DNA from: a virus
Taxonomy: Duplodnaviria > Heunggongvirae > Uroviricota > Caudoviricetes
Strand: one strand, 5' to 3'
IMG/VR virus record: IMGVR_UViG_2576861193_000004
Coordinates: 32,001 to 96,000 of that record
DNA length: 64,000 nt
The notes below the pieces were generated by a model, which was not told the DNA's origin, did no database searches, and saw only the letters and a list, made by a program, of their open reading frames with translations. This document shows positions 35,353 to 58,550 of this stretch, piece by piece. How positions within the stretch are numbered: the stretch's first letter is position 1; each line of letters opens with the position of its first letter. Both the position numbers and the translations under genes were made by a program.

Positions 35353-35365
35353 TTAATGGAATCTT

Positions 35366-35386
35366 GCGCCCACTATGGGCGCTTTT
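35366..35386 (+). terminator. rho-independent terminator (copy 1 of repeated hairpin)
   Basis: GCGCCCACTATGGGCGC followed by TTTT. Confidence 0.6.
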
Positions 35387-35399: not shown

Positions 35400-35630
35400 A
35401 TGTTTATTCTTATCGCTGGCGTTAACGTGCGCAATGAATATTTTGTTAATCGCATCGCTGGGATCGCTGGTTACGCTGGGCGCGCAGTCGAGTTCATAAA
35501 TGAAACAACGCGAAGAATTGACTTATTGAACGACCAGGAGCGAAAAAAAGCAGACGTGAATGACGCTGATATATTTTTAATGTTGAAAGCGTTTGTAGAA
35601 ATGGGATTCAAAATTAGTTTACACAAATAA
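35400..35630 (+). CDS. hypothetical small protein (76 aa)
   Basis: ATG 35400 with SD AAGGAG. Flanked on both sides by copies of the same terminator hairpin. Confidence 0.45.
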   Translation: MFILIAGVNVRNEYFVNRIAGIAGYAGRAVEFINETTRRIDLLNDQERKKADVNDADIFLMLKAFVEMGFKISLHK

Positions 35631-35635
35631 AATCG

Positions 35636-35660
35636 AGCGCCCACTATGGGCGCTTTTTTC
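35636..35660 (+). terminator. rho-independent terminator (copy 2)
   Basis: GCGCCCACTATGGGCGC followed by T6, followed at 35683-35706 by a second hairpin GCGCCATCATTGGCGC plus T6. Confidence 0.65.
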
Positions 35661-38888: not shown

Positions 38889-39244
38889 AAAGCAATCCTT
38901 AAACAACATGTTTTCTTGATGGTGTTATTATCGCAATAACGCACAGGCGAAAAAGGATTTTATTCCGGTGAATGTGGTTTTGGCAGTGAGTTTTCAGGTT
39001 CAGTACCGAGTACACTTTTTACATTATTCTGATTTAGTGGCCGAAGGTGGCTGGTGGGCAGAATAATCATCTCCCCGAAAACCTACTGAAATCGATTGTG
39101 ACCCGCTGACTGTCTGGCACAATTACGCTGTAGTTGGGCATTCAGAGGGAATCCAGCGGTAAGTAAGTTCGCCTGCACGTGAGCGCCTCTCTTCTTCCCG
39201 CACATTACAGGTGGGTAGCCGCAACTCTCCCTATCGCTATACCG

Positions 39245-39385
39245 GTACGCCGCCGTTCCTGAACCGGCATCGAGCCTTTTCCCGAAATCCACACAGGCAA
39301 CTCGACCGTTTCCCTGAAAACCTCCAGCCGTTCCCCGAAGGCAACCCAGCCGTTTCTGTAGCGGGATGCAGCCTTTTCCCTGTAT
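39245..39385. repeat. iteron cluster 2 (six (A)GCCGTTTCCC-type direct repeats, 22-bp periodicity)
   Basis: Copies at about 39252, 39274, 39305, 39327, 39349, 39371; the last four form an uninterrupted 22-bp tandem array. Confidence 0.75.
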
Positions 39386-39419
39386 GGACCTAAGGCTGAC
39401 CGTAGGGGTGTTACGGGGG

Positions 39420-40330
39420 ATAAAATCAGGAGTTGATTAAATACGAAAAAGGAGGCGACACCCCTCCTTCCCTCCCCACTTATACATACCTGTCTTGTTC
39501 GCTATACATGTTGTGTTTTCTTCGTGTTTTATCTGTCTCAACCTCTCTATAGGCGTTAATGCTCACTCCTTCCAGAATGTTCTATACGGCGACTATTTCT
39601 GTTGGTGAATTGGGTGTGTTGTTTTCTCTGTCGGTGTATGTGGTTTCGTTCGTTTTGCGGTGGTTCTTCTATGGGGTGTTCTCGTCGTTTTGGTGATTGT
39701 TCTTCTCCGTGTATGGAGTAATGGCAGGTGGGCGATTCCTTTCGTTATTGTGTTTGAGTTGTTTGTCTGGAGTGTGAAAGGCTTTTGTAGTTATTCGTGT
39801 ATTGGGTAATGGCGTTTCCCGTGATTGTTATGTTTCGTGTCTTTTGGGATTGAGAGAAACCTTGCGGTTACAGGCTTCGTTGGGGTTTCAGTGATTCTGG
39901 TGTTTCTTCGCTGTTTGGGTAATGGCGTGTCGTGGGTATCGCGCGTATGAATGTTTTCGGATTGCCTGTGAAAGTTAGGTTGGTTGTCCGGTAGCCTGGG
40001 GAGAAGAGGTGGGTCTTTTCGGTAGCCTGCCATAAAGAGGTTGGTTGTTTTGGGGAATGGCATGTGTGTTATTTAGTTGTTTTGTTATGCCTGAAAATAA
40101 GTTGTTTATATGGTTGTGTAACGCAACGGGAACGATTTTGAGCGTGTGTTTTTGTTGGTGGTGTGTTGGGTCGTCTGTGGTGAAAATTGGACGCTGTGGC
40201 GCTGTCTGCTGCGTAGAATTACGGGTATAAGAAGTGATGTGTGAATACGTCAATTTTTTAGACCAAATCGGGTGAAAGCGTTGACGTTTCGTTGATCTGT
40301 TATTCAGTTGTTTTCTTATTGGTATAAACA
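39420..40330. other. ORF-poor, strongly G+T-skewed segment with periodic GGGTAATGGCG-like motifs
   Basis: Plus strand is almost only G and T over about 0.9 kb. Repeated motif at about 39712, 39800, 39918, 40052 and tandem CGGTAGCCTG / GGTTGGTTGT pairs. Track ORFs here have implausible composition. Confidence 0.6.
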
Positions 40331-40450: not shown

Positions 40451-41020
40451 TTAGTTGTTCAGATAAACATTTGGAACACGGACGTAGAAGTTCCTGTCGC
40501 CGGTAAGTTCCAGAGTAATGTTAATGTCATTACCATTGTCTAGTGTAGCCGTTGCTCTATAGAACTTATCCGTCACCTTGTCCTCTATTGTCACCTTCAT
40601 ACATTTTGGTGCAGTCGAACCGTTATTCTCTTTCAGAATAGTTGTCACGAGAGGGCAGGCTGCTTCTTCAAGAGCAACCTCGTCCTTGTGTGGGATGCCG
40701 ATGAAGATAATCCAAGCCAGCGACGCAACGATTATGATAAATGGCACTCTGCTGCCTTTTGTAATAGTCGCGCGCTTCCAGAGATAGACAGGCAGGAGGA
40801 ATACCCCCCATAGAATTGAAGGTGGTTCACAGCCAGACTCCGATAGAGCCATTCTGTCAGCTACTAACAAACCGATGGTAGTTACACCCCCAATTATAAT
40901 AGCGTAATTGGTATACTCTTCCGGCGATACTCCAAAGAAGAAAGGCATGAACGCTAGAATCCACGCATAAATGTTATTCAGAGGTTTTGTTTGTTGGTTC
41001 TGGGTTTCCATCACATCCAT
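40451..41020 (-). CDS. integral membrane protein (about 4 TM helices)
   Basis: Hydrophobic segments (IYAWILAFMPFFFG, IIIGGVTTIGLLV, ILWGVFLLPVYLW, FIIIVASLAWIIFIGI) plus soluble C-terminal domain. Confidence 0.55.
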   Translation of the reverse strand: MDVMETQNQQTKPLNNIYAWILAFMPFFFGVSPEEYTNYAIIIGGVTTIGLLVADRMALSESGCEPPSILWGVFLLPVYLWKRATITKGSRVPFIIIVASLAWIIFIGIPHKDEVALEEAACPLVTTILKENNGSTAPKCMKVTIEDKVTDKFYRATATLDNGNDINITLELTGDRNFYVRVPNVYLNN

Positions 41021-41172
41021 TCCATCACATAAAAATCGCGTTTATATATTATCAATTTTCTCACTTGTATAACCTAAATACGCATCCGTTTATCAATCCA
41101 CCTTCCACAAACATCAGCTTTAGCTATGAAAAATAACAATCTCAAAGTGAAAACCATTATCATAGGAAACGA

Positions 41173-41358
41173 TTAGATGAGATGGTCTAATTCATCATCT
41201 ATCATTGCTTTAACACTTGAGTCATTAACCCCGTATTGATTTATGAGCCGTTTCAGCTCCGGTGAAAACTGAAGGTAGATATCGTGAGCGTTTTTCACTG
41301 TAGGTTCAACGCCACGCATTTCAAGCGCCTTTAGTAGATATGAGTCTTCTTTAAGCAT
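41173..41358 (-). CDS. hypothetical small protein
   Basis: 61-aa ORF between two early-type genes. Confidence 0.3.
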   Translation of the reverse strand: MLKEDSYLLKALEMRGVEPTVKNAHDIYLQFSPELKRLINQYGVNDSSVKAMIDDELDHLI

Positions 41359-41394
41359 AAATTCTCCGTTATCTAGTATGAAGCGATTGCCGGA

Positions 41395-41694
41395 TTACCA
41401 TTGCCAGCACTCTAGCCCTTCAACGACCGGTGCACCACAATCAAAATGTACAGAGTCAAAGCCTACATCAAGTACTTTCTGAATGTTAGCAATCGCGCCT
41501 TCGGATATACCATATCGACGCAAGTCATCTTTCCAGACATCATCCTGTAACCCGGCGTGGACAATACAACCGCCATCAATTTGTGAAACCCAATCCAGCT
41601 CATTGCTTGCGATCATGAATCGGCGAGCATCTTCCTCTGATGTATGAGATGAACTGATCAATGCCACCTGGTAGGCTTGGGTAATGTTCAACAT
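41395..41694 (-). CDS. hypothetical protein (early-type cassette gene)
   Basis: ORF preceded by two copies of the AACAAnTTGTT palindrome flanking a GATAAT -10-like hexamer. Starts about 160 bp downstream of the metG terminator. Confidence 0.5.
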   Translation of the reverse strand: MLNITQAYQVALISSSHTSEEDARRFMIASNELDWVSQIDGGCIVHAGLQDDVWKDDLRRYGISEGAIANIQKVLDVGFDSVHFDCGAPVVEGLECWQW

Positions 41695-41702
41695 TTCAAC
41701 AA

Positions 41703-41780
41703 CTCCGAAACAATTTGTTTTCTTATGTGGCTTATTATCTCAATCAACAAAAGGTAGAAAACAAATTGTTTTAGGGTTTG
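41703..41780 (-). promoter_or_regulatory. conserved promoter-palindrome cassette (two AACAAnTTGTT sites flanking GATAAT)
   Basis: GAAACAATTTGTTTTC (41707-41722) and GAAAACAAATTGTTTTA (41757-41773) around a minus-strand GATAAT hexamer. The same cassette is upstream of genes starting at 36729, 37454, 38405, 38888, 55263, 55986 and terS. Confidence 0.6.
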
Positions 41781-41807
41781 TTAAAGTCAGAAGGGGTTGT
41801 GTCTATA

Positions 41808-41836
41808 TGAAAATGCCCAGCGTGTTGCCGGGCATT
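41808..41836 (-). terminator. metG terminator
   Basis: Hairpin ATGCCC...GGGCAT followed by T-run on minus strand, 20 bp after the metG stop. Confidence 0.6.
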
Positions 41837-41855
41837 GCGAACAGAGGTTGTTTAA

Positions 41856-43889
41856 TTACTTAACCTGGTGGCCTGGTTTAGCACCAGCATCCGGGCTTAA
41901 CAGGAAGATATCTTTCCCGCCGGGGCCAGCAGCCATCACCATGCCTTCGGAGATACCGAAGCGCATTTTACGCGGAGCCAGGTTAGCCACCATAATGGTG
42001 TGACGACCAATCAGTGCCTGTGGGTCTGGATAAGCAGAACGGATGCCTGAGAAGACATTACGCTTTTCACCACCGAGATCCAGTGTCAGACGCAGCAGTT
42101 TGTCAGAACCTTCGACAAACTCCGCGTTTTCAATCAGCGCCACACGCAGGTCAACTTTGGCGAAGTCGTCAAAGGTGATGGTTTCCTGAATCGGGTCGTC
42201 AGCCAGTGGGCCAGTTACCGGTGCAGCTGTGGCTTTCACTTCTTCTTTGGATGCTTCCACCAGTGCTTCCACCTGTTTCATATCGATACGGTTATACAGT
42301 GCCTTGAACGGATTCACTTTATGGCCCAGCAGCGGTTGCTGGATACCATCCCAGGTCAGTTCTGTATTCAGGAATGCTTCTGCACGTTCAGTCAGTTTCG
42401 GCAGTACCGGTTTCAGGTACGTCATCAGCACGCGGAACAGGTTAATGCCCATAGAGCAAATCGCCTGCAGGTCGGCATCGCGGCCTTCCTGCTTCGCCAC
42501 CACCCACGGAGCCTGTTCATCAACATAGCGGTTAGCCAGGTCAGCCAGTGACATGATTTCACGGATAGCTTTGCCAAATTCGCGGCTTTCCCACGCTTCA
42601 CCAATCACTTCAGCGGCATCAGTGAAGGTTTTGTACAGTTGCGGGTCAGCCAGTTCGCTTGCCAGCACGCCGTCAAAACGTTTGTTGATAAAACCTGCAT
42701 TACGGGAGGCCAGGTTAACCACTTTGTTCACGATATCGGCATTCACGCGCTGAACAAAATCTTCCAGGTTGAGATCGATATCATCAATGCGCGAAGAGAG
42801 TTTCGCAGTGTAGTAGTAACGCAGGCTGTCGGCGTCAAAATGATTCAGCCAGGTGCTGGCTTTAATAAAGGTGCCGCGAGACTTGGACATCTTCGCGCCG
42901 TTCACCGTCACATAGCCGTGAACAAACAGGTTGGTCGGCTTGCGGAAGTTGCTGCCTTCCAGCATGGCAGGCCAGAACAGGCTGTGGAAGTAAACGATAT
43001 CTTTACCGATGAAGTGGTACAGCTCGGCGGTGGAGTCTTTCTTCCAGTATTCGTCGAAGCTGGTAGTGTCGCCGCGTTTGTCGCACAGATTCTTGAAGGA
43101 ACCCATGTAGCCAATCGGCGCGTCCAGCCAGACGTAGAAATATTTGCCCGGTGCGTTCGGAATTTCAAAACCGAAGTACGGCGCATCGCGGGAGATATCC
43201 CACTGTTGCAGGCCAGATTCAAACCACTCCTGCATTTTGTTTGCCACCTGCTCCTGCAACGCACCGCTGCGGGTCCATGCCTGCAACATTTCGCTGAAAG
43301 AGGGCAGATCAAAGAAGAAGTGTTCAGAATCACGCATTACCGGCGTAGCGCCAGAAACCACCGATTTCGGCTCGATCAATTCAGTCGGGCTATATGTTGC
43401 GCCGCAGACTTCACAGTTATCGCCGTATTGATCTGGCGCTTTACATTTAGGACAGGTGCCTTTTACAAAACGGTCCGGCAGGAACATGCCTTTTTCCGGG
43501 TCGTACAACTGAGAGATAGTGCGGTTTTTAATAAAACCGTTCTCTTTCAGGCGAGTATAGATAAGCTCAGACAACTGACGGTTCTCTTCGCTGTGCGTCG
43601 AGTGATAGTTGTCATAGCTGATGTTAAAGCCTGCGAAATCAGTCTGGTGTTCCTGACTCATTTCGCCAATCATCTGCTCCGGTGTGATACCAAGCTGCTG
43701 TGCTTTCAGCATGATCGGCGTACCGTGGGCATCGTCGGCACAGATGAAATTAACCTCGTGGCCGCGCATTCGCTGGTAACGAACCCAGACATCAGCCTGG
43801 ATGTGCTCCAGCATATGGCCGAGGTGGATTGAGCCGTTAGCGTACGGCAGCGCGCACGTCACCAGAATTTTCTTCGCGACTTGGGTCAT
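41856..43889 (-). CDS. metG: methionine--tRNA ligase
   Basis: 677-aa product essentially identical by eye to E. coli MetG ([29 protein letters not shown]...KMSKS...). Track ORF begins at an upstream in-frame start; true ATG at 43889. Confidence 0.95.
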
Positions 43890-44046
43890 AGTAGGCATTA
43901 CTTCTTTGTAGTGAAAAGGGGCTTGATAGTAACAAAATGGCCTTATGTCTGCCATGTGATAACAGCATTTCTCATAAATGATTAAATGTCGTAGCTGGAG
44001 TACACTACAAGGCGACAATTGCGCAAATTAAAATAAAGGAGACGGG

Positions 44047-45147
44047 ATGAGCGAGTCCAAATCGCCGGATGCCCTGAGAGCAATGGTAGCCGGTACGCTG
44101 GCTAATTTTCAGCACCCAACCCTGAAACACAACCTGACTACGCTTAAAGCGTTACACCATGTTGCGTTGATGGATGACACACTGCATGTCGAACTAATCA
44201 TGCCTTTCGTGTGGAATAAGCCTTTTGAAGACCTGAAAGAGCAATGTAGTGGTGATCTGCTCCGTATCACTGGCGCAAAGGCTATTGACTGGAAGCTGTC
44301 GTACAACATTGCCACGCTTAAGCGCGTCAAAAACCAACCAGGCATTAATGGCGTTAAGAACATTATCGCCGTCAGCTCAGGCAAGGGCGGCGTGGGTAAA
44401 TCCTCCACGGCGGTAAACCTGGCACTGGCGTTGGCTGCTGAAGGTGCGAAAGTTGGTATTTTGGATGCCGATATCTATGGTCCATCAATTCCAACCATGC
44501 TGGGCGCGGAAAACCAACGTCCAACCTCACCTGACGGTACTCACATGGCACCTATCATGTCTCATGGCCTGGCAACCAACTCTATTGGTTATCTGGTCAC
44601 CGACGACAATGCAATGGTGTGGCGTGGACCGATGGCCAGCAAGGCGCTGATGCAGATGTTGCAGGAAACTCTATGGCCTGATCTGGACTATCTCGTTCTC
44701 GATATGCCGCCGGGCACTGGTGATATTCAGTTGACGCTGGCGCAGAACATTCCTGTAACTGGTGCGGTTGTGGTAACTACGCCGCAAGACATCGCGCTGA
44801 TCGATGCGAAGAAAGGCATTGTGATGTTCGAAAAAGTCGAAGTGCCGGTACTGGGTATCGTCGAAAACATGAGTGTGCATATTTGCAGTAACTGCGGTCA
44901 TCACGAGCCAATTTTTGGCACCGGTGGCGCACAGAAACTGGCCGAGAAATACAACACGCAGTTGTTAGGCCAAATGCCACTTCATATCTCTCTTCGTGAA
45001 GATCTGGATAACGGAACACCAACCGTTATTAGTCGTCCAGATAGCGAATTTACGGCTATTTATCGTGACCTCGCAGATCGCGTTGCTGCCCAAATGTATT
45101 GGCAAGGTGAAGTAATACCTGGCGAAATCGCATTCCGCGCAGTGTGA
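44047..45147 (+). CDS. apbC: iron-sulfur cluster carrier protein ApbC/Mrp
   Basis: P-loop GKGGVGKSSTAVNLA, CxxC motif (CSNCGHHEP), divergent from metG as in E. coli. Confidence 0.95.
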   Translation: MSESKSPDALRAMVAGTLANFQHPTLKHNLTTLKALHHVALMDDTLHVELIMPFVWNKPFEDLKEQCSGDLLRITGAKAIDWKLSYNIATLKRVKNQPGINGVKNIIAVSSGKGGVGKSSTAVNLALALAAEGAKVGILDADIYGPSIPTMLGAENQRPTSPDGTHMAPIMSHGLATNSIGYLVTDDNAMVWRGPMASKALMQMLQETLWPDLDYLVLDMPPGTGDIQLTLAQNIPVTGAVVVTTPQDIALIDAKKGIVMFEKVEVPVLGIVENMSVHICSNCGHHEPIFGTGGAQKLAEKYNTQLLGQMPLHISLREDLDNGTPTVISRPDSEFTAIYRDLADRVAAQMYWQGEVIPGEIAFRAV

Positions 45148-45176
45148 TAAAAAGGCGGTGCATTGCACCGCCTAAT
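45148..45176 (-). terminator. hairpin terminator between apbC and the umuD'-like gene
   Basis: Perfect hairpin GGCGGTGCA-T-TGCACCGCC. The T-run lies on the minus-strand side, so it is oriented for the umuD'-like gene. Confidence 0.55.
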
Positions 45177-45184
45177 CAGTTCTC

Positions 45185-45574
45185 CTACATCACGGGACAA
45201 TCATCAAACTCGCCACTTCTTGCGTCGTTGATAATGTGAGTGATCACACCAAACACGGCATTGCTGCCCGTGCATCCATCGTCATCCTTTGGCAATGCTT
45301 CCTTCTTACCGGTTCTTAAATCCTCCAGATGCTGACGTGGGTACTTCCGGTATCTTTTTACGCGATATTCCCCATCCAGAGCGCATACAAGCAGAGAACC
45401 ATCAACCGGGGTAAGTGAGGAATCGACCACCAGCAATGCACCCTGTAATATTCCCTCACGATGATGACTATCAGCTGCCCTCATGAAGTAGGTCGCTGAA
45501 GGATGTCTAATTATCTGCTGATCAAGAGAAATACGGCTCTCAGCATAATCCGCCGCAGGAGAAGGGAAGCCCAT
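45185..45574 (-). CDS. UmuD'-like (HumD-like) S24 peptidase-fold protein lacking the N-terminal cleavable arm
   Basis: Aligns with UmuD from about residue 25 (GFPSPAADY...HPSATYF). Ser (DSH) and Lys (RVKRY) positions retained. In-frame stop 5 codons upstream of ATG, SD GAGGTG. Confidence 0.8.
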   Translation of the reverse strand: MGFPSPAADYAESRISLDQQIIRHPSATYFMRAADSHHREGILQGALLVVDSSLTPVDGSLLVCALDGEYRVKRYRKYPRQHLEDLRTGKKEALPKDDDGCTGSNAVFGVITHIINDARSGEFDDCPVM

Positions 45575-45592
45575 AGCGTTTTCACCTCAGAG

Positions 45593-45612
45593 TACTGTTT
45601 ATCCATACAGTA
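45593..45612 (-). promoter_or_regulatory. LexA (SOS) box
   Basis: TACTGTTTATCCATACAGTA matches CTGT-N8-ACAG; located about 20 bp upstream of the umuD'-like ATG. Confidence 0.75.
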
Positions 45613-45672
45613 TACATTAAAGATGCTTGAAGTGTGCAATAGCGCGATGCTTTGCGCTCGCCTGGTGGCGCG

Positions 45673-45936
45673 TTATTTTTTGGCTATATCTTCTTTCTGA
45701 TATACCGGATCGTTTCCTTTTGGCAGCAGGAGGCTTAACTGCCGGTAGTGCCGTAGCCGTTCCATGAAATAGGTGCGCAGGTTCTCAGGTTGCTCACGGG
45801 CTACCTGTTCCGCTATGACGGGTATGTTCAATCGCTCTTTGTAGGCAACCCCCCTGGCAGCCAGGTCAACGTTAACTTTATTCCTTTCTTCCTGGCTTTT
45901 AGCTGCTATGTTCCATTCGTTCATATTAAATCCCAT
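45673..45936 (-). CDS. hypothetical protein
   Basis: 87-aa ORF upstream of the LexA box and umuD'-like gene. Start uncertain (ATG 45936 or 45924), weak SD. Confidence 0.35.
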
Positions 45937-46392
45937 CCAGAATAATTGAATAACGGCTATTATTTAGTCGCCGCAATATCTTCAAAGTTTTTTTTCTCAC
46001 CCCATTGCTTTTTGCGCACAGCTTATCTGGCTTGCGGTGCGCGAAATGTAAATTCGCCTTCAGAGTTATCCACAAAGTTATGCACTTGCAACGGGGCCAT
46101 TTTCCTCATACCGTGTTTGCACACACAGGAAATGGATATTTTATTAATTGAATTTTATTAAATAATAATGATAAGGAGAAAATTTGAGATGTAATCATGA
46201 CATTAATAGATAGGGCCTGCATTACAGGCCCCAACTACATCAAGGAATTCACAGTTCCCTGATTTTTATACCGAAAACATGTGCCGTAAGTTCACGTTAA
46301 CGACTTTCTTTCACCGAATCCAACTATATAGAGGTTGGGTTTCTACGTCAACGTGAGAGCACGCAGCTTTACATTAGACGAGGATTACCCTG

Positions 46393-46530
46393 ATGATTGT
46401 ATTTTTTCAGTTTCTAAGTGCATTTTTAAATGCGCCTGTTCTTAGCCAAGTGCTGGCGATTGTCTTCATCGTGGTTCTGATATGGTTTTTCAAGTCAGTG
46501 ATAAACAGAGGCGTGCGCTGGCTTATTTAA
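46393..46530 (+). CDS. small hydrophobic peptide (45 aa, single predicted TM helix)
   Basis: ATG 46393 preceded by SD GAGGA at 9 nt. Sequence MIVFFQFLSAFLNAPVLSQVLAIVFIVVLIWFFKSVINRGVRWLI. Below the ORF-track size cutoff. Confidence 0.3.
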   Translation: MIVFFQFLSAFLNAPVLSQVLAIVFIVVLIWFFKSVINRGVRWLI

Positions 46531-47062
46531 TGTCGCGATGAGATATTAATTCCCTTGCTGTTTAACCATTTTTTGTGTGTGCTGGTGAGCGTGTGAAGGC
46601 TCAATTTGTTGCCCACCAGTATTTACTATTTCTAAGCTCCACAGTGTCACTTCCGCACAAACAACTTAGCGCGGAATCAGTATTCGGCCCAAGATGTAAA
46701 AAGCCAACCTGCGTTATGGTTCGCATTTCCAAATAGTGTTCTGAACGCCCTTGCCGGGCGCGAGATGTAGATTAGCGTTCACGCTATGCTGATATACGGC
46801 TTTAGACTTTCCATATTGCTGACAGGCTTTATCTGCGGTTTTTTGCAGGCTATCCAGCCCATACCAGCCATCAGACTGGATGCTTACCTTTTCACCGTCA
46901 TTGTATTGCACCATCGCGCACCCAAACATGGCTATCATCGCACCGACAATACCACTTTTCCAAAAAGCTCTAATTAGGTCATTCGTTACCTAATGTCCGA
47001 ACTGCTAAAGCATCCAAGTTGCTGTAGAATCACCGCCAATTACATAAGCCTGAAATAAGTGG

Positions 47063-48625
47063 ATGAAAATGACAAGTATTCAACAACGTGCAGAGCTTCA
47101 TCGTCAAATCTGGCAAATTGCTAACGATGTCAGGGGTTCGGTCGATGGATGGGATTTTAAGCAATACGTTCTGGGCGCACTTTTCTACCGTTTTATCAGC
47201 GAAAATTTTTCCAGTTATATTGAAGCCGGTGATGACAGTATCTGTTATGCGAAACTGGATGACAGCGTAATTACTGATGACATTAAAGACGATGCCATCA
47301 AAACTAAAGGCTACTTCATCTACCCCAGTCAGCTTTTCTGCAACGTAGCTGCGAAAGCAAATACTAATGACAGACTGAATGCAGATTTAAACAGCATCTT
47401 CGTTGCTATCGAAAGTTCTGCTTACGGTTATCCTTCAGAAGCAGACATCAAAGGTTTGTTTGCTGATTTCGATACCACCAGTAACCGCCTGGGTAACACC
47501 GTTAAAGATAAAAATGCCCGCCTGGCTGCGGTTCTGAAAGGGGTTGAAGGGTTAAAACTTGGTGACTTCAACGAACATCAGATTGACCTGTTCGGTGATG
47601 CCTATGAGTTCCTGATTTCTAACTATGCGGCAAATGCCGGTAAGTCAGGCGGTGAGTTCTTTACACCGCAGCACGTCTCCAGGCTGATTGCACAACTGGC
47701 AATGCATGGCCAGACCCACGTTAACAAAATCTACGACCCGGCAGCGGGTTCCGGCTCACTGTTGTTGCAGGCGAAAAAACAGTTTGATAACCACATCATC
47801 GAAGAAGGCTTTTTCGGTCAGGAAATCAACCATACGACCTATAACCTGGCGCGTATGAACATGTTTTTGCACAATATCAACTACGACAAGTTTGATATCA
47901 AGCTGGGTAATACACTGACTGAGCCGCACTTCAGAGATGAAAAACCGTTTGACGCCATCGTATCTAACCCACCGTATTCGGTGAAATGGATTGGCAGCGA
48001 TGACCCGACGCTGATTAACGATGAGCGTTTTGCCCCGGCTGGCGTTCTGGCCCCCAAATCCAAAGCTGACTTTGCGTTTGTATTACATGCACTGAACTAT
48101 CTTTCTGCCAAAGGTCGTGCTGCGATTGTCTGCTTCCCGGGTATTTTTTACCGTGGCGGCGCGGAGCAGAAAATCCGTCAGTATCTGGTCGATAATAACT
48201 ATGTCGAAACCGTGATTTCACTGGCACCGAACCTGTTCTTTGGCACCACCATTGCAGTAAACATTCTGGTGCTGTCTAAACATAAAACGGATACCAACGT
48301 TCAGTTTATTGACGCCAGCGAACTGTTCAAAAAAGAGACTAACAACAATATCCTGACCGATGCCCATATCGAACAGATTATGCAGGTATTTGCCAGCAAG
48401 GAAGATGTTGCTCATCTGGCGAAATCTGTCACGTTTGAGACCGTTGTCGCGAATGACTATAACCTGTCGGTAAGCAGCTATGTGGAAGCGAAAGATACTC
48501 GCGAAATTATCGATATCGCTGAGTTGAATGCAGAACTGAAAACCACGGTCAGCAAAATCGACCAGTTGCGTAAAGATATTGATGCGATTGTGGCTGAAAT
48601 TGAAGGCTGCGAGGTGCAGAAATGA
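47063..48625 (+). CDS. hsdM: type I restriction-modification methyltransferase subunit
   Basis: N-terminal HsdM pattern ([10 protein letters not shown]...[17 protein letters not shown]), N6-adenine MTase motif NPPYS, 520 aa as recalled for EcoR124I HsdM. Confidence 0.9.
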
Positions 48626-49857
48626 GCGAGTTGAGTTATCTGGAAAAATTGCTGGATGGGGTTGAGGTTGAGTGGTTGCCATTGGGGAAACTAGGTGAAT
48701 TAGTTCGTGGAAATGGATTGCCTAAGTCTGATTTTACCGAATCTGGGGTTCCTGCCATACACTATGGTCAGATATATACTTTTTACGGATTATCTACTGA
48801 AACAACAAAGTCATTTGTTTCCCATGAAACGGCGAAGAAGCTTAAAAAGGTTAACTCTGGTGATGTTGTTATTACTAACACAAGCGAAAATTTTACTGAT
48901 GTTGGTAAGGCGCTTGTTTATCTAGGTAAAGAGCAAGCTGTTACTGGTGGCCATGCAACTATTTTCAAGCCAAATAGCACTATTATTGGGAAATACTTTG
49001 CCTATTTCACGCAAACGGATTCTTTTGCAAATGAGAAAAGGAAATACTCCAAGGGAACTAAAGTAATTGATGTGTCTGCATCGGATATGGCGAAAATTAT
49101 TATCCCTATCCCCTGTCCGGAAAATCCCAAAAAATCCCTTGCTATCCAGTCTGAAATCGTTCGGATTCTGGACAAATTTACTGCACTTACCGCTGAGCTT
49201 ACCGCTGAGCTTACCATGCGTAAAAAACAGTACAACTACTATCGCGACCAATTGCTGAGTTTTAAAGAAGGTGAGGTTGAGTGGAAAACTTTGGGAGAAG
49301 TGGCTCAATACTCGAAAACAAGAATTAGTTTCGAACTACTTGATGAAAGGAATTATGTTGGCGTAGATAATCTGCTGCAAAACAGAGCAGGAAAATCATT
49401 ATCTAATCATGTACCCACATCAGGTAAATTAACGGAGTTTATACCTAACGATATACTGATTGGGAATATCCGCCCATATTTGAAAAAAATTTGGCAAGCA
49501 GATTGTATCGGTGGAACAAATGGCGATGTATTGGTTATTCGTTGCATAGATAGCTCAATAAATACCAGATATCTATATCAGATTTTGGCAGATGACAAAT
49601 TCTTTGAATACAACATGCAGCATGCTAAAGGAGCAAAAATGCCGCGTGGCAGTAAAGAGGATATAATGAAATACCCAATCCCTGTACCGCCACTCACCTT
49701 GCAAGCTCGCATTGTCGAAATACTCAACAAATTCGATACCCTGACAAACTCCATCACTGAAGGTCTTCCGCGTGAAATCGAATTACGCCAGAAACAATAC
49801 GAATACTACCGTGATTTACTGTTCAGTTTCCCAAAACCTGAAACTGTCAGTAATTAA
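48622..49857 (+). CDS. hsdS: type I restriction-modification specificity subunit, type IC-like
   Basis: Two target-recognition domains separated by a central conserved region carrying the TAELTAEL repeat. C-terminal YYRDLL repeat of the conserved motif. Overlaps hsdM stop. Confidence 0.9.
49186..49209 (+). repeat. 2 x 12-bp tandem repeat CTTACCGCTGAG encoding TAEL-TAEL in HsdS
   Basis: Perfect tandem duplication inside the hsdS central conserved region. Confidence 0.9.
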
Positions 49858-49978
49858 TTGACCATTGCTACCGACCGGGCCACCTTAACACCCGGTCTGT
49901 ATATAGACTATTTTTTACGCGCCGGAAGTCACTCTTAACGCCCTTCCGGCCCTTGCCAGGCGGCACAAAGGATGCGCT

Positions 49979-52900
49979 ATGACTCATCAAACACACACCA
50001 TTGCTGAATCCAATAACTTTATCGTCCTTGATAAGTACATCAAAGCTGAGCAAACAAGCGACAGCTACCAGAGCGAATCGGACCTGGAACGTGAACTGAT
50101 TCAGGACCTGCGGAATCAGGGTTATGAATTTATTTCCGTAAAATCACAGTCGGCAATGCTGTCCAATGTTCGGGAACAGCTTCAGAGCCTCAATGGTGTG
50201 ATGTTTAATGACAGCGAGTGGCGGCGCTTCACGGAGCAGTATCTGGACAATCCCAGCGATGGTATTCTGGATAAGACCCGTAAAATCCATATCGACTATA
50301 TCTGCGACTTTATTTTTGACGACGGGCGTCTTGAGAACATCTATCTGATCGATAAAAAGAATCTCATGCGCAACAAAGTGCAGATTATCCAGCAGTTTGA
50401 ACAGGCAGGTTCTCATGCTAACCGTTATGACGTCACGATCCTGGTTAATGGCTTGCCTCTGGTGCAAATCGAACTGAAAAAGCGCGGCGTGGCGATTCGT
50501 GAGGCTTTCAACCAGATACATCGTTACAGCAAAGAGAGTTTTAACAGCGAAAATTCCCTGTTTAAGTATCTGCAACTGTTTGTCATTTCTAACGGCACCG
50601 ATACCCGTTATTTTGCCAACACCACAAAGCGCGATAAAAACAGTTTTGACTTCACCATGAACTGGGCGAAATCAGACAACACGCTGATTAAAGACCTCAA
50701 AGACTTTACCGCTACCTTTTTCCAGAAACATACCCTGCTTAATGTTCTGGTGAACTACAGCGTGTTTGACAGTAGTCAGACGCTACTGGTGATGCGACCG
50801 TACCAGATTGCAGCTACCGAACGGATCTTATGGAAAATCAACAGCTCCTATAAAGCGAAAAACTGGTCTAACCCCGAAAGCGGTGGCTTTATCTGGCACA
50901 CCACTGGTTCCGGTAAAACACTGACCAGCTTTAAAGCCGCGCGTCTGGCAACTGAACTGGACTTTATTGATAAAGTCTTCTTCGTGGTCGACAGGAAAGA
51001 CCTCGATTACCAGACCATGAAGGAATATCAGCGTTTTTCGCCAGACAGCGTCAACGGCTCGGAAAATACCGCAGGTCTTAAACGAAATCTGGATAAGGAC
51101 GATAACAAAATTATCGTCACCACTATTCAGAAACTTAATAACCTGATGAAAGCAGAAAGCGACCTGCCTGTATACAATCAGCAAGTGGTGTTTATATTTG
51201 ATGAATGCCACCGCAGCCAGTTTGGAGAAGCGCAGAAAAACCTGAAGAAGAAATTCAAACGCTATTATCAGTTTGGTTTTACCGGCACCCCTATTTTCCC
51301 GGAAAATGCCTTAGGCTCAGAAACGACCGCCAGCGTATTTGGTCGTGAATTGCATTCGTATGTAATTACCGATGCGATTCGTGACGAAAAAGTGCTCAAA
51401 TTCAAGGTGGACTACAACGATGTGCGGCCACAGTTTAAGTCTTTAGAGACAGAAACTGACGAGAAAAAACTGAGTGCGGCTGAAAATCAGCAGGCGTTTC
51501 TTCATCCCATGCGTATTCAGGAAATCACGCAATATATCCTGAACAACTTCCGCCAGAAGACTCACCGTACTTACCCCGGCTCCAAAGGTTTTAATGCCAT
51601 GCTGGCAGTAAGCAGCGTGGATGCCGCGAAAGCCTATTACGCGACGTTTAAACGGTTACAAGAGGAAGCCGCTAATAAATCTGCTACCTATAAACCACTG
51701 CGTGTTGCGACAATCTTCTCCTTTGCCGCCAATGAAGAACAAAATGCCATTGGTGAAATTTCCGATGAAACTTTTGATACCAGCGCAATGGACAGCAGTG
51801 CTAAAGAGTTTCTTGACGCTGCAATTCGTGAGTATAACAGCTATTTTAAAACTAACTTCAGCACCGACAGTAACGGTTTTCAGAACTACTATCGTGATTT
51901 AGCCCAACGGGTTAAAAATCAGGATATCGATCTGTTAATTGTCGTTGGGATGTTTTTAACCGGCTTCGACGCTCCAACATTGAACACGCTATTCGTCGAT
52001 AAAAACTTGCGTTTTCACGGCCTGATGCAGGCATTCTCCCGTACCAACCGCATTTATGACGCTACTAAAACCTTCGGTAACATCGTCACTTTTCGGGATC
52101 TGGAACGCTCAACCATTGATGCCATAACGCTGTTTGGTGATAAAAATACTAAAAATGTGGTGTTAGAAAAGAGTTATGCAGAGTATATGGAAGGCTTTAC
52201 TGATGCTGCTACAGGTGAAGCTAAACGCGGCTTTATGGCAGTAGTTTCAGAACTGGAACAACGGTTCCCTGACCCTGCCAGTATTGAAAGTGAAAAAGAG
52301 AAGAAAGACTTCGTTAAACTGTTTGGCGAATACCTGCGTGCCGAGAACATCCTGCAAAACTATGATGAATTTGCCACGCTGAAAGCCCTGCAACAAATCG
52401 ATCTTAGCGATCCTGTTGCGGTAGAAAAATTCAAAGAAGAACATTATGTGGATGATGAAAAGTTCGCTGAATTGCAAACGATTCGTCTCCCTGCTGAACG
52501 CAAGATTCAGGATTATCGTTCTGCCTATAACGATATTCGTGACTGGCAGCGCCGCGAGAAAGAAGCTGATAAAAAAGAAAAATCAACCACTGACTGGGAT
52601 GACGTGGTTTTTGAGGTCGATTTGCTGAAGTCTCAGGAAATAAACCTGGATTATATCCTTGGACTGATTTTCGAACACAACAGACAAAATAAAGGCAAGG
52701 GCGAAATGATCGAAGAGGTCAAACGCTTAATTCGTTCAAGCCTGGGGAACCGGGCGAAAGAGGGCCTGGTGGTCGATTTTATTCAGCAAACGAACCTGGA
52801 TGATTTACCAGACAAAGCCAGCATCATTGACGCGTTCTTTACCTTTGCTCAACACGAACAGCTACGTGAAGCAGAAGCGTTGATTAAAGAAGAAAATCTC

Positions 52901-53095
52901 AATGAAGAGGCGGCGAAACGCTATATTCGCACGTCTTTAAAACGCGAATACGCCACCGAAAATGGCACAGAATTAAACGAGACATTACCAAAACTTAGTC
53001 CGTTAAACCCGCAATATAAAACGAAAAAACAGACGGTTTTCCAGAAAATCGTCACGTTTATTGAAAAGTTCAAAGGAGTAGGTGGGCAGATATAG
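49979..53095 (+). CDS. hsdR: type I restriction enzyme endonuclease/translocase subunit
   Basis: 1038 aa with SF2 helicase motifs (TGSGKT, DECHRS, GFTGTP). Confidence 0.9.
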
Positions 53096-53153
53096 TGTAT
53101 TAATCTGAACCAGATCTGGCAGATATCTGTGCAAATTGCAGATAGCTGTCAGA

Positions 53154-53564
53154 TCAAGCCATCGTAGGGATGTCTGTATCCACTTTGAACTCCGGTACAC
53201 CAACGAACTCTTTAACCTTCATCTGATAGCCGGTTCTGTCAGTTTTGATGACTTCCTGCTTGCCCTCGATAAATTGCTCACGCCACTCGTCGCGACGGGA
53301 AGCTGGCATGATCAGCAAAACGTTAGTCATATCCGTGACCTTCCTCCAGTACTCGGCCCAAATATTCTGTTTCACCCATTCCAGATCGACTTTATCCAGC
53401 CAAGCTCGATTCAAACGTGAGCGATCTTCATCTGGTCGATGGTTTAGTCTCAGCAGGCGATTAATCATGTTGTGGCGTTCGTCGCCATAAACGAAGTCGT
53501 GTACCTGATACATGAAGGCGATCTCTTTCTCGCACTCGGCCACGATTTCGTGGATGACATTCAT
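53154..53564 (-). CDS. hypothetical protein
   Basis: 136-aa ORF convergent with hsdR, SD AGGAA before ATG 53564. Confidence 0.5.
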   Translation of the reverse strand: MNVIHEIVAECEKEIAFMYQVHDFVYGDERHNMINRLLRLNHRPDEDRSRLNRAWLDKVDLEWVKQNIWAEYWRKVTDMTNVLLIMPASRRDEWREQFIEGKQEVIKTDRTGYQMKVKEFVGVPEFKVDTDIPTMA

Positions 53565-53740
53565 TTCCTGCCGATAGTCGATAGTCGATAGCAGCGTTTG
53601 AGTTGGGATCGTCGATGATGGAAAGGGCTGTATTCATAATAGCACCATTAAGAAGTGATTTGTTTAATGGTGCTATTATTTCAAAAATGAAAAGGTACTA
53701 AATAGAAATAAACCGGCAATCCTTCAAATAAAGGCATTGT

Positions 53741-54355
53741 CTAATCATACTTGGAGGTATTTATCACCAGAATTTTGTTTGTATAAATCTTCTTAATATC
53801 CCATGTGACATTACCGGAATACCATTGGCCGTTATACACTTGGTTTCCAGTTGCACCTGTCATAGTTACATAGACAGGTCTGTCGTAATCGGTTCGTCTA
53901 TAGTTATATACCCCAACCATAGCAGGCATTACTGCGCACGGATACCCCATATCTATTGTAAATTGTGGGTCAGAAATAGTGATAAGTTTCGCATCAAGGG
54001 GCATCATCTCACCGTGATACACCATTGCGCCTGCGCTGTTATACATGGCAATGCCATAGCCAGAATGTGGTAACACCATATCAGAAAAAGCATAAACTGT
54101 TATTGTTCCGGGGCTACCATTTACCTGATGCAATCTGAGAGCATTGTATCCGTTACTATTTTCATGAATAAACATCATGTTCGCCTTATTACTGCTTTTT
54201 ATGAAGAAAAAGCATGATTTGTTTGATGGGATTGATGTTTTAAAAACAGAACCTTTAGATGCAGACATTGTCCCTTTATTAATCAGATTTTGCGGAGTAA
54301 ATTCTGGACTCATCCACAAACCTCCATCTGATTGAGTAATTGACATCCCGAACAT
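53741..54355 (-). CDS. hypothetical beta-rich protein (Asn/Tyr/Gly/Thr-rich)
   Basis: AT-rich ORF. Track start 54412 is TTG. ATG at 54355 lies 2 nt after the stop of the upstream 93-aa gene. Confidence 0.45.
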   Translation of the reverse strand: MFGMSITQSDGGLWMSPEFTPQNLINKGTMSASKGSVFKTSIPSNKSCFFFIKSSNKANMMFIHENSNGYNALRLHQVNGSPGTITVYAFSDMVLPHSGYGIAMYNSAGAMVYHGEMMPLDAKLITISDPQFTIDMGYPCAVMPAMVGVYNYRRTDYDRPVYVTMTGATGNQVYNGQWYSGNVTWDIKKIYTNKILVINTSKYD

Positions 54356-54357
54356 AA

Positions 54358-54639
54358 TTATCCCCAGTATGTGTATATGTAAGAACCAAGCCCCGTATAT
54401 AAATTTGACCAACTAACCGTATTTCCATTAATAGTAACTTTCGGAACAGGTAAATTGATGTAGTTGTCGTTGTTAAGAGGCATCAATGACCACACGGCAT
54501 GAAGTGATTTACCCGGTGGCGGATTAGAGTACGTCTTAGAGCCTGATGACGCCGTAAATCGATCAAGAAAAAAAATAGGTGTAAGGAAGCCAGTAACGTT
54601 AATTCCTTTATTGTTGTAAATCCCTGTACCGTATGCCAT
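54358..54639 (-). CDS. hypothetical protein (93 aa)
   Basis: ATG 54639 with SD AGGGTG, terminator-like hairpin upstream, coupled to the following gene. Confidence 0.45.
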   Translation of the reverse strand: MAYGTGIYNNKGINVTGFLTPIFFLDRFTASSGSKTYSNPPPGKSLHAVWSLMPLNNDNYINLPVPKVTINGNTVSWSNLYTGLGSYIYTYWG

Positions 54640-54693
54640 TTTTCACCCTTGTTTTTATCAACACAATATGGCCGATCATGCGGCCATATCAGA

Positions 54694-55263
54694 TCAATTA
54701 GAGCTTTGAAAGACTTTGTGTGGTTGTGTTGCGAGGTTATGTCGATGGCTTAACTCACGCATCATGTCTTCAAGGCGACTCTTTGTGTCGTCGAGTTGGT
54801 CGGCCATTGCTCCCAAAAGCTGACGAACGGCCATCGGATCATCGCTGTTTAGTGATGGCATTTTATAACCCGCCTGAGAAGACATAAGATTGAACGCAGA
54901 CATCAACATCGTTAGAGAGGATTTAAGCCCAGCAATTTCACGATCTTTGCTGGCAATAATCGCCTCACTCTTGTTAGTGTCATCAGTACGTTGAGTCTCG
55001 CTCACCATATCCAAAGTCGCCTGCAACTTATCAGCGAGCTCTTTTTCAGCAAGATAATGAACGCCGAAATGATGTGCTAAAGCTACAACCTGAGTTGGTT
55101 CTTCAAAGGTGGAATTAAAATTAAGTACTGTAAACAGTCTCTCAAATATGGAAACGTCTTCTGTTCCCCGAACAATACCTAACATTTTGACAAGTTCATT
55201 AGCATCCATTTCTTCGAATAGGGCGTTTTGTTCATCAGCTATTGCTTTGCATTTCTCGCACAT
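54694..55263 (-). CDS. hypothetical protein with N-terminal CxxC
   Basis: 189-aa ORF (MCEKCK...) preceded by the conserved promoter-palindrome cassette. Confidence 0.5.
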   Translation of the reverse strand: MCEKCKAIADEQNALFEEMDANELVKMLGIVRGTEDVSIFERLFTVLNFNSTFEEPTQVVALAHHFGVHYLAEKELADKLQATLDMVSETQRTDDTNKSEAIIASKDREIAGLKSSLTMLMSAFNLMSSQAGYKMPSLNSDDPMAVRQLLGAMADQLDDTKSRLEDMMRELSHRHNLATQPHKVFQSSN

Positions 55264-55560
55264 GTGTTTTCCTTAATTCTTAAACAAGTTGTTTTCTTAT
55301 TGGGTTTATTGTGATGTGGCATATAAGGGGAGCAAGCTAAACGTAAAGGTGCAAACTCTCTATTTTGGTCAACGAAACACAAGGGCCATTTGGCCCTTGC
55401 CATTAACACGTTGCTTTACGGACTAGCGGATAGGCGAAGTAGATCGCCAAACCAATGAGGACGCCATCAGAAATGACAGACATCATCTTTCCCGTAAAAT
55501 CCACCAACACCGCCATCACCAGAAGAGCAATGACGGTCACAAGCCGGAATCTCTCAAGCA

Positions 55561-55986
55561 TTAGAGATAAGCATCCAGTGACAACTGAAGCGCCTGGGCG
55601 ATCTTTTTCAGTGCCTGCTCTTCTTGTTCACCAATGCCGTCCTGGTCGGCAATATCAAGGCACAGACACAGAACATCGACCGCCTCTGGAGTGCCCGCAA
55701 TATCAGCCAGCTCACGCATAGCCTGCGCATTCGCAGAACGAGGGGACGCTTCGTAACGAGCACGGATATTGGCGCTCATTTGGGCAATTTCACCAGCAAA
55801 CGGAGAAAACGCAGGCAGAGCTGCAATTGTCTTCTCAAGAATGGCAATTTCTTTTGCGTCACATGTGCCGTCGGCATAGGAGATCATGTACGCGCCCCAC
55901 ACGGTGGCCTCAACCGCATCACGGTTCTCCATTTTTTTGACTTCGATAACAGCTTTACGAGTTTTCTTTTTGAAGAAACCTAACAT
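55561..55986 (-). CDS. TerB-like (tellurite-resistance TerB fold) protein
   Basis: 141 aa with a TerB-like helical pattern. Preceded by the conserved palindrome cassette. Confidence 0.5.
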   Translation of the reverse strand: MLGFFKKKTRKAVIEVKKMENRDAVEATVWGAYMISYADGTCDAKEIAILEKTIAALPAFSPFAGEIAQMSANIRARYEASPRSANAQAMRELADIAGTPEAVDVLCLCLDIADQDGIGEQEEQALKKIAQALQLSLDAYL

Positions 55987-56079
55987 GTGTTTTCCTTTTG
56001 TTATTTGTCAAAACAAGTTGTTTTATAGTTTCATAAATTGCTTACGCAAAGATGGTCAATGCATATGCACTAACAACCG

Positions 56080-56268
56080 TCAGAAATAACCAAGTACCGA
56101 ACCGACTGGAAAAACAAAAATCCCAACTACACGAGCCAAGGTCATGCCAGCCTGAAACTTGAGATCACCTGAGCAAACGAGTTTTATAATGTTGGATACC
56201 CAACCGGCGGCCATGAGAGCCAGAATTGCCAGCCAAATTTTCCCAAAGTGATTTGAAAGCCAGTTCAT
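56080..56268 (-). CDS. small membrane protein with two TM helices (holin-like)
   Basis: 62 aa with TM1 IWLAILALMAAGWV and TM2 VVGIFVFPVGSVLGYF. Start overlaps stop of upstream small ORF. Confidence 0.45.
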   Translation of the reverse strand: MNWLSNHFGKIWLAILALMAAGWVSNIIKLVCSGDLKFQAGMTLARVVGIFVFPVGSVLGYF

Positions 56269-56516
56269 ACAACCACCTTAGTCACAACATGATCCTGAGT
56301 AACTGGATGAACTTGAGGTATCGCATCCACCGTCATCCCATCCAGAGTGACAGGACGCTCTACTGTAGTGGTGGTAATTGTCGTCGACGGAGGTGTGGTG
56401 ATGGATGAATCCGGCATCAAAAGGCTCTGACCGGCTGGTACGGTAATCGCTGCCAGAGTTGCCAAAATCACTCCGTAGGCCATTGGCTTCAGTCGATTTC
56501 GTTGAAAATTTTCCAT
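56265..56516 (-). CDS. small protein with hydrophobic segment and Thr/Pro-rich linker
   Basis: ATG 56516 with SD AAGGA at 8 nt. Translationally coupled to the 2-TM gene. Lies inside a longer alternative-frame ORF (56278-56772). Confidence 0.35.
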   Translation of the reverse strand: MENFQRNRLKPMAYGVILATLAAITVPAGQSLLMPDSSITTPPSTTITTTTVERPVTLDGMTVDAIPQVHPVTQDHVVTKVVV

Positions 56517-56914
56517 GAGAACTGTCCTTGTGTGTCCGGGTTTCACGCAACACACGAGAAGCGACGCTATTACGCACCTTCTCCATGCCTACTGTCGTGC
56601 CCAGATTAGCTATGGCGGTAGCTTGCGCATTAATGCGCTTCTCCAGTTCAAACACTCGTTCTTCCAGTTCCGTAAGGCGTGCGGAAACACGACCACTAAA
56701 CAGCTCGGTCAGCACCAGGCGAATTGAACGGGGACGTTTATTGAAAGAAGTGAAAGACGTTTGACGGGCCATGTGGATTCCATTCAGTGTCAGAAAGAGT
56801 TGCGGCTGGCCAAGCCAGCCGCCTTTTGGCGTTCCATCCTGGAACCGTACCTAACCGGTACTTCGTCATCCTGACGATTTATAAGATACCTGATTTATTA
56901 TAGTGGGTAAATAC

Positions 56915-57523
56915 TTACTTATCTTTTTGTGACAAAAACCCAATGTCATGCTTGTGAGGCATATCAGCTGCGGAATAGGCGGCGATCTTCGCCAGACGGT
57001 CACACATTTCGTTCTCGCGATGACCTGCATGGCCTTTAACCCACTTCCAGCGGACATTATGACGACTGGCGGCCGCGTCGAGACGTTTCCAGAGATCCAC
57101 GTTTTTGACTGGCTTCTTCTCAGACGTGATCCATCCGTTACGCTTCCAGCCTTTCATCCAGAGCGTCATGCCGTTTTTAAGATACTGGCTGTCGGAATGC
57201 AGGATCACGTTGCAGGGGTACTTCAGACGCTCCAGCGCAATCAGGGCGCCCATCATCTCCATCCGATTGTTGGTCGTGCTGTGAAAGCCCTCAGAAAGCT
57301 CGCGCTCTTCGCCTCGATACTGGAGAACGATGCCGTAACCGCCCGGCCCGCCCGGATTTTTGAGGCAAGAGCCATCACTGAATACTTTTACGGTTTTGAG
57401 CTGGGGATTGAACTCGACTACGGGGGTTTTGAAGTTGGTACGGGATTGCTGGTGGGTTTGGTATCTGGCTTTGGACTTCGTGCGGCAGCCAGTATGTTGC
57501 CGGGCTGGGGTCTTGGTCGTCAT
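56915..57523 (-). CDS. ribonuclease H (RNase HI family) with N-terminal basic extension
   Basis: RNase HI core motifs ([53 protein letters not shown]). ATG 57523 with SD GGAG; track start 57580 is GTG. Confidence 0.85.
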
Positions 57524-57552
57524 TTTGGCTCCAGAATCGCGCGCCGCGACGA

Positions 57553-58348: not shown

Positions 58349-58431
58349 GATAGTTTTCCTTACTGTGGTTCATAAAATCGATTCTAGAGCGTCTGGAGAG
58401 GGGCTCCAGTAGGTTCTGAAGGTGTAAAACG

Positions 58432-58535: not shown

Positions 58536-58550
58536 CTCCCAGACTGGTGT

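Follow-up and report, generated by a model that had tools for sequence, protein, structure and literature searches.

Cyrano (plasmid pLF82, OV696614) is an SSU5-like phage-plasmid that is 81% identical to SSU5 over 65% coverage; it forms siphovirus particles, as determined by quantitative PCR and transmission electron microscopy, is induced about 39-fold by ciprofloxacin, and is present at about 5.5 copies per cell (PMC9928086). Plasmid pWPMR2 of Shigella sonnei belongs to clade K of the SSU5 supergroup, and pWPMR2-like elements were reported to be without defence systems (bioRxiv 10.1101/2025.09.12.675607). The stretch of DNA analyzed here (64,000 nucleotides, positions 32,001 to 96,000 of the IMG/VR virus record IMGVR_UViG_2576861193_000004; hereafter the window) carries between phage genes the divergent pair metG, encoding methionyl-tRNA synthetase (MetRS), and apbC, encoding an Fe-S cluster carrier. 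It is considered highly probable that the window belongs to an SSU5-supergroup phage-plasmid with metG-apbC as auxiliary cargo, that the pair was captured long ago, that metG has since been patched from host chromosomes, and that expression of the cargo in the lysogen bears on the survival of the cell.

Cyrano and about 200 pSLy3-like phage-plasmids of the SSU5 supergroup (from E. coli, Shigella, E. albertii, and E. fergusonii; for example pCP53-113k, NZ_CP033097.1) resemble the window in the backbone and in the metG-apbC-humD module, with the same junctions and 96-99% nucleotide identity. In the Cyrano record the two cargo genes are labelled MetRS and, by misnaming, MinD. To the right of humD, the window and pCP53-113k have hot and type I restriction-modification genes, whereas Cyrano has Ea22/Eaa-like genes and a DUF4942 methylase; the metG alleles of Cyrano-type relatives are also different mosaics from that of the window. 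pWPMR2 is likewise an SSU5-supergroup phage-plasmid with an auxiliary metG, to which survival or persistence under antimicrobials has been attributed; this likeness is one of published description. Because the window has type I restriction-modification genes, while pWPMR2-like elements are reported without defence systems, it fits clade J (pSLy3-like) better than the clade of pWPMR2. SSU5, pHCM2, and the SSU5-like elements of Klebsiella and Salmonella share with the window the early-gene array (DUF5983 gene, TerB/TciA-like genes) and the AACAAnTTGTT palindrome, but are without metG, apbC, and humD, the slot being filled by ydfZ, LprI, a DNA-binding protein, or insertion sequences (IS); no literature match was found for pHCM2 together with MetRS. 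Phage P1 has a humD-hot(-lxr) block approximately 87% identical to window positions 45196-45998, with HumD in the same pre-truncated UmuD' form. The rest of the window, a siphovirus SSU5 backbone in which metG-apbC follows humD, is unrelated to P1.

The phage-plasmid backbone and its cargo

The features of the locus are as follows; metG and apbC were assigned from the open reading frame (ORF) listing and best-match annotation.

41395-41694, minus strand: DUF5983 / phrog_5003 gene, 99 amino acids, the first backbone gene left of the cargo
41709-41719 and 41760-41770: two AACAAnTTGTT palindromes, promoter/operator-like cassette of the leftward backbone gene 41395-41694
41806-41835, minus strand: hairpin with short T-run, terminator-like, just 3' of metG
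41856-43889, minus strand: metG, methionyl-tRNA synthetase, 677 amino acids, full-length
43890-44046: divergent control region of metG and apbC, 157-bp spacer
44047-45147, plus strand: apbC (mrp), Fe-S cluster carrier ATPase, 366 amino acids
45153-45173, minus strand: GC-rich hairpin, T-run on that strand, taken as the terminator of humD
45185-45574, minus strand: humD-like S24 peptidase, UmuD' form, 129 amino acids
45673-45936, minus strand: hot-like homologue of DNA polymerase III theta, in the P1-like block 45196-45998
47063-53095, plus strand: type I restriction-modification genes hsdM, hsdS, and hsdR, separate variable defence cargo

Positions 41000-46000, with both junctions included, are 97-99% identical to about 190 plasmids of E. 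coli, Shigella, E. albertii, and E. fergusonii, nearly all of them non-mobilizable, typed as IncFIB, and 100-115 kb in size. Phages Cyrano, CMS-2020a (two records), and PhiR41_1 match over that interval too. At a coverage of at least 80% of 41000-46000, 172 plasmid records were counted; for metG-apbC alone there were 202 records, and the junctions recur in four phage genomes. The similarity extends well beyond the cargo: 905-25000 (tail, tape measure, portal, and capsid genes) and 45150-64000 are collinear with the same plasmids, and in the former interval the identity is approximately 97%, to plasmids whose annotation lists immunoglobulin-like, portal, tail, and tape measure proteins. The best-matching plasmids do not share the initial ~900 bases.

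In pCP53-113k, major capsid, portal, large terminase, ParB-like proteins, helicase, thymidylate synthase, dihydrofolate reductase, and a Dam-like methylase are annotated around the locus. The capsid, portal, and terminase genes, which make up a siphovirus structural and packaging module, are collinear with the window, and all flanking ORFs tested fall in PHROG families. The near-identical records are all circular plasmids, and the ParB-like genes correspond to window positions 28.07-29.43 kb. The window would thus be a contiguous part of a ~110-kb siphoviral phage-plasmid of Escherichia and Shigella, of the pSLy3, Cyrano (pLF82), and pWPMR2 kind, which would reside in the cell as a low-copy circular plasmid. 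That way of life would also be the reason why no integrase or attachment site is present in the window. The absence of a tRNA attachment site, already remarked in the initial annotation, was borne out by ARAGORN, which detected no tRNA or tmRNA gene in the 64 kb.

Within this element, metG-apbC would form "moron" cargo at the left end of a variable region of ~12 kb (about 41.78-53.7 kb). The region, which also holds the P1-like humD-hot genes and the type I restriction-modification genes, appears to sit between backbone early genes that carry the promoter/operator palindrome of the lineage. On the left side, backbone similarity to metG-less Salmonella SSU5-like plasmids ends at about 41776. 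The 99-residue left neighbour is 43-46% identical in amino acid sequence to homologues in SSU5 and Klebsiella phages, and is found in Salmonella SSU5-like elements too. As the initial annotation had noted, an early-type phage gene flanks metG, its start lying 161 bp past the metG stop, and an umuD'-like gene flanks apbC, its end lying 37 bp past the apbC stop.

Of the explanations that the initial annotation had put forward, a phage or phage-plasmid with a captured metG-apbC is the one retained, as the same junctions occur in plasmids and phages; it is amended in that the element is SSU5-like, the capture is old or foreign, and hsd is separate. A captured metG-apbC-hsd segment does not hold, since hsdMSR is missing in Cyrano and present in a subset of relatives only, other genes taking that place in Cyrano, and the apbC of K-12 adjoins yehE-yehD-yehC. 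hsdMSR is a defence cassette of its own, outside the metG-apbC capture. A P1-like element, the first guess from the humD and hot matches, was dropped after the backbone had been annotated as of the siphovirus SSU5 type.

The protein encoded at 45185-45574 has a Pfam S24 match from residue 1 and aligns to 21-140 of the 140-residue phrog_811 profile; the S24 domain is thus present without the N-terminal arm that is removed by RecA-mediated cleavage, as in HumD. The presence of the P1-like humD-hot block in an SSU5 backbone speaks for module exchange between two major families of E. coli phage-plasmids.

Two genes of different apparent age

Both metG and apbC are intact and kept by strong purifying selection. 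MetG is 677 amino acids long, equal to all enterobacterial orthologues, and carries HLGH at residue 22, CPKC at 146, CEVC at 159, and KMSKS at 333, with Pfam matches to tRNA-synt_1g (E=4.6e-166), Anticodon_3, and tRNA_bind (581-674). It is accordingly a class I MetRS of the long bacterial form, with the two zinc knuckles and the C-terminal tRNA-binding domain intact. ApbC, at 366 amino acids (369 in chromosomes), has the GKGGVGKS P-loop and CSNC, that is, the deviant Walker A motif and C-terminal CxxC of the ApbC/Mrp (NBP35) Fe-S cluster carriers, and matches PF10609 (NUBPL iron-transfer P-loop NTPase; E=2.4e-102). The selection is evident from the ratio of nonsynonymous to synonymous divergence (dN/dS), which was 0.01-0.03 in every comparison for both genes, and from the conservation of ApbC, which has no amino acid change between the window and Cyrano despite a synonymous divergence (dS) of 0.077. 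The ApbC protein is ~100% identical in about 30 IMG/VR contigs, and the apbC of the window is 99.9% identical to that of pCP53-113k. Nearly every E. coli-type member has kept the module, also among non-clinical isolates (soil, water, livestock).

The two genes were initially annotated as essentially identical to the E. coli core genes. Compared with K-12, however, metG is 93.9% identical in nucleotides and 98.7% in amino acids, and apbC is 82.2% and 94.5% identical, respectively. For apbC the dS to K-12 (1.56) is five times that for metG (0.31), against apbC/metG ratios of 1.5-2.1 between chromosomes; the two halves of the pair therefore have different apparent ages. The apbC value exceeds that of E. 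coli versus Citrobacter (1.18).

Chromosomal donors were sought in species-representative genomes, among the best 80 loci ranked by MetG protein identity. In this set the plasmid metG is closest to E. coli (93.9%), followed by Escherichia sp. E1V33 (92.9%), and many of the MetG substitutions are ancestral enterobacterial states. The apbC gene lies at about the same distance from Escherichia, Citrobacter, and Salmonella; no nucleotide identity above 82.6% was found among the 80 loci, and the donor may lie beyond them. CP170191.1, labelled Enterobacter hormaechei strain B56, has identities to the window of 93.854% (metG) and 82.385% (apbC), the same values as K-12, and is probably a mislabelled E. 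coli chromosome.

Recombination was studied in 21 plasmid and phage copies, comprising the window, L001, L003, and 18 IMG/VR loci (L089-L121). The tract pattern in metG is clear with these 21 copies; an earlier comparison (window versus pCP53) had four sequences only. Nucleotide diversity (pi) is 0.030 in metG versus 0.015 in apbC. At 94 of the 118 metG sites at which the plasmid consensus differs from K-12, some copies carry the K-12 allele, as compared with 28 of 196 such sites in apbC. The K-12 alleles of metG lie in contiguous tracts (411 runs versus 582 +/- 12 in shuffles; 114 sites), and the outermost parts of metG stay plasmid-type. The mosaic in the plasmid metG thus points to gene conversion with chromosomal metG, a pattern that apbC does not have.

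Taken together, the divergent pair would have been captured once, long ago, from an enterobacterial chromosome other than that of E. coli, and metG would have been repeatedly patched from host chromosomal copies by RecA-dependent exchange. Such exchange would be possible in metG because it is conserved enough for RecA-dependent recombination, while apbC would have escaped it because it is too diverged to recombine.

Expression, antibiotic survival, and alternative explanations

The metG-apbC pair lies outside the operator-controlled units of the element, and the metG leader is host-like. Transcription of the genes in the lysogen would start at host-type promoters of their own, apart from the phage circuit and on a multi-copy replicon, so that the cell would hold an extra, variant MetRS (and ApbC). 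In Cyrano lysogens, transcripts of the apbC homologue CYRAN_99 were 9-fold over the prophage background (PMC9928086). It is well established that perturbing the activity of MetRS can lead to tolerance or persistence (PMC11634777, PMC11004401, PMC6642377). The E. coli papers concern the same enzyme but mutant alleles of the resident chromosomal copy, whereas the window has an intact, full-length, conserved extra copy on a mobile element. According to the summary of Tam et al. 2024 (medRxiv 10.1101/2024.10.27.24316207) in PMC12452169, metG is multi-copy and variable on a phage-plasmid, and its expression yields a persister-like sub-population predisposed to survive, or to gain resistance to, third-generation cephalosporins. 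The same effect of metG dosage or variant may operate in the element described here.

Several points weigh against the phage-plasmid reading in its full form. The replicon gene lies outside the window, and the plasmid status of this sequence is deduced from its relatives. No donor genome of apbC is identified among the best 80 species by MetG identity. The metG gene of LF82 (CYRAN_100) is not in the list of genes at least 5-fold over the prophage background (PMC9928086), which does not speak for strong lysogenic expression of metG. The survival mechanism is taken from a second-hand summary that concerns another element, S. sonnei pWPMR2, and would apply here by analogy. Virion production and inducibility are properties of the relative Cyrano that may extend to this element.

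A further possibility, advanced tentatively, is that, by continual exchange with chromosomal metG, the phage-plasmid lineage stores MetRS alleles and carries them from host to host, among them alleles that modify persistence. The homology in metG might now and then also let it integrate at the metG region or transduce it. In that case, apbC would be a passenger of ancient origin that does not recombine, derived from an enterobacterial lineage outside the sample, and would be the actual lysogenically expressed moron, co-selected with metG.

It is rather unlikely that the cargo serves the phage instead of the lysogen, either by supplying MetRS for translation initiation in the lytic cycle or by offering metG as a recombination anchor (for RecA-dependent integration, allele exchange, or transduction), with persistence as a by-product. 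The clear history of metG exchange between plasmid and chromosome would suit such a role, as would the existence of chimeric contigs (see below), the retention of the module in soil, water, and livestock isolates, and the place of metG outside the strongly expressed lysogenic morons of LF82. However, an integrated form was seen in no complete chromosome among the best-ranked matches, and the very strong purifying selection on both proteins would be needless for a mere homology anchor.

It is very improbable that metG-apbC was copied directly and recently from the E. coli core region, terminators included. Such a copy would agree with metG being closest to E. coli among the species sampled, and with the conservation of ~46 bp next to the metG start. 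These 46 bp are, however, the sole part of the spacer conserved with K-12, and identity is lost a few bases from either stop codon, as it is across most of the spacer. Across 5426 complete E. coli genomes, chromosomal copies align to 41855-45140/45143 only, at about 90%, and a K-12-type chromosome gives a single blastn alignment, 41855-45143. The two genes had been annotated as keeping their own terminators, which is not the case, for the similarity to the chromosome stops at the stop codons and the downstream hairpins are not chromosomal. The hairpin at 41806-41835 is unrelated to the metG terminator that K-12 and Escherichia sp. E1V33 have in common, and is unlike that of Citrobacter as well; the hairpin at 45153-45173 is the terminator of humD and not of apbC, because its T-run is on the minus strand. 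The window copy thus has neither near-identity to chromosomal alleles nor shared flanks or terminators, and the apbC dS above the E. coli-Citrobacter value and the ancestral states in MetG also speak against a recent copy. An old capture followed by patching of metG would account for similarity that ends exactly at the metG stop codon.

Hardly any credence is given to a chromosomal core metG-apbC lying between two related prophages, or within one prophage split by an inversion, as two of the initial proposals had it. The lack of an integrase or tRNA attachment site and the same motif families on both flanks had spoken for these arrangements, but the junctions and gene order are identical in more than 170 complete circular plasmids of ~110 kb and in phages. 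The chromosomal pair, ~90% identical to the window copy, adjoins a DUF4132 gene and yehE (then yehD-yehC) in K-12 and has no phage genes beside it. No chromosomal flank occurs within the 64 kb, and among the best-ranked matches no complete chromosome of E. coli joins a chromosomal flank to plasmid-type apbC-humD.

An assembly chimera of a phage-plasmid contig and a chromosome, joined through a shared repeat, is just as remote: draft IMG/VR contigs of this kind exist, but both window genes are plasmid-type (apbC 99.9% identical to pCP53-113k and 82% to K-12), and both junctions are found again in hundreds of complete, independent records. The split prophage, the two elements, and the mis-assembly are all ruled out, since hundreds of closed plasmids are collinear with the window.

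The draft contigs in question are 2671180456_000009 (L090), 2671181056_000013 (L098), and 2740892421_000017 (L111 and L116), in which a DUF4132 or yehE flank is followed by a hybrid metG and then by plasmid-type apbC-humD; one of them has a triple metG-apbC arrangement. They are probable assembly chimeras through the 94%-identical repeat, because that junction is absent from the complete E. coli chromosomes among the best-ranked matches; the query also drew IS1 noise. Rare integration by recombination would be a less favoured reading of them.

Flanking motifs, other features, and meaning

The three motif families that the initial annotation had placed on both flanks of metG-apbC were all recovered there, and the flanks therefore belong to one phage genome. 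Their positions are as follows.

26753, 36751, 37515, 38418, 41709, and 41760 (left of metG); 55283 and 56012 (right): AACAAnTTGTT
17809 and 38011: exact copies of GTAAGTAnnTACTTAC
4392, 11310, 17809, 23300, 24807, 30099, 38011, 56903, 58103, 59157, and neighbours: GTAAGTAnnTACTTAC-type sites
26807-26905 and 58431-58545: compound inverted repeats of ~100 bp

The eight AACAAnTTGTT sites (six left of metG and two right) compare with 0.13 expected, and are often embedded in AGAAAACAAnTTGTTT. Read on the strand that codes for the leftward genes, five of these eight sites lie just downstream of a -10-like A/T hexamer, and seven are roughly 10-45 nt upstream of a start codon. Such an arrangement is that of a promoter/operator; an RNA hairpin is out of the question, since a loop of 1 nt does not allow folding. 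The palindrome is present in eight copies in 14 kb of SSU5 and in six in Klebsiella phage pJN2-26, and none of 81 chromosomal loci has it; it thus serves the phage group at large as a regulatory word, and is probably the operator of a repressor or regulator of the SSU5 supergroup.

Sites of the GTAAGTAnnTACTTAC type number 16 at up to three mismatches (1.45 expected) and occur on both flanks, the two exact ones being both left of metG. They are scattered over the structural and early regions, and several adjoin TATAGT-like boxes. Their distribution suggests the site of a second regulator or a late-promoter element. The compound inverted repeats (~100-115 nt, with a TAAGT.ACTTA-type centre) share a 66-nt core that is 76% identical, and fold with z of about -8 versus shuffles (DNA fold). 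Each comes between a stop codon, which it adjoins, and the next leftward gene, and they could be strong bidirectional terminators or protein-binding sites.

A scan of the whole window against Rfam gave no family at threshold. Counts from the sigma-70 promoter and terminator scans were not above those of shuffles, the sole informative item being the hairpin at 45153-45173, and a search for tandem repeats around the locus gave two trivial matches only. Elsewhere in the window, a GC hairpin with T-run (GCGCCCACTATGGGCGCTTTT) is found at 35355-35386 and 35626-35657, in two copies that are 88% identical and 271 bp apart; the pair looks like duplicated intrinsic terminators on either side of a small gene. 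A 120-nt unit is repeated three times in 1176-2183 (65-72% identity), with two of the units adjacent. Positions 38940-40300 form a stretch of ~1.4 kb without a convincing ORF, and pCP53-113k has no annotated gene at ~38.9-40.45 kb. The plus strand of this stretch is strongly G/T-rich (AT skew -0.30), has no Rfam match, and is packed with degenerate direct repeats, such as GCCGTT(T)C...GCCTTTTCCC at 39247-39380, with GGGTAATGGC units spaced about every 90-110 bp. It could be an origin, an array of binding sites, or a long non-coding transcript.

As a discovery, the locus carries little weight. The element, its metG cargo, and the phenotype of the cargo are already in databases and literature, and such elements are common, with many in public data; what is new, and only modestly so, is that metG and apbC differ in apparent age and that the plasmid metG is a conversion mosaic. 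The locus is useful as a calibration case, in which a housekeeping pair with the look of core genome within phage DNA is long-resident phage-plasmid cargo. A second metG at ~94% identity confounds read mapping, single-nucleotide polymorphism calling, and genome-wide association studies at chromosomal metG, and can yield chimeric draft contigs. For the biology of the host, the mosaic in metG is a sign that alleles do pass between a mobile element and an essential gene with a link to antibiotic tolerance.

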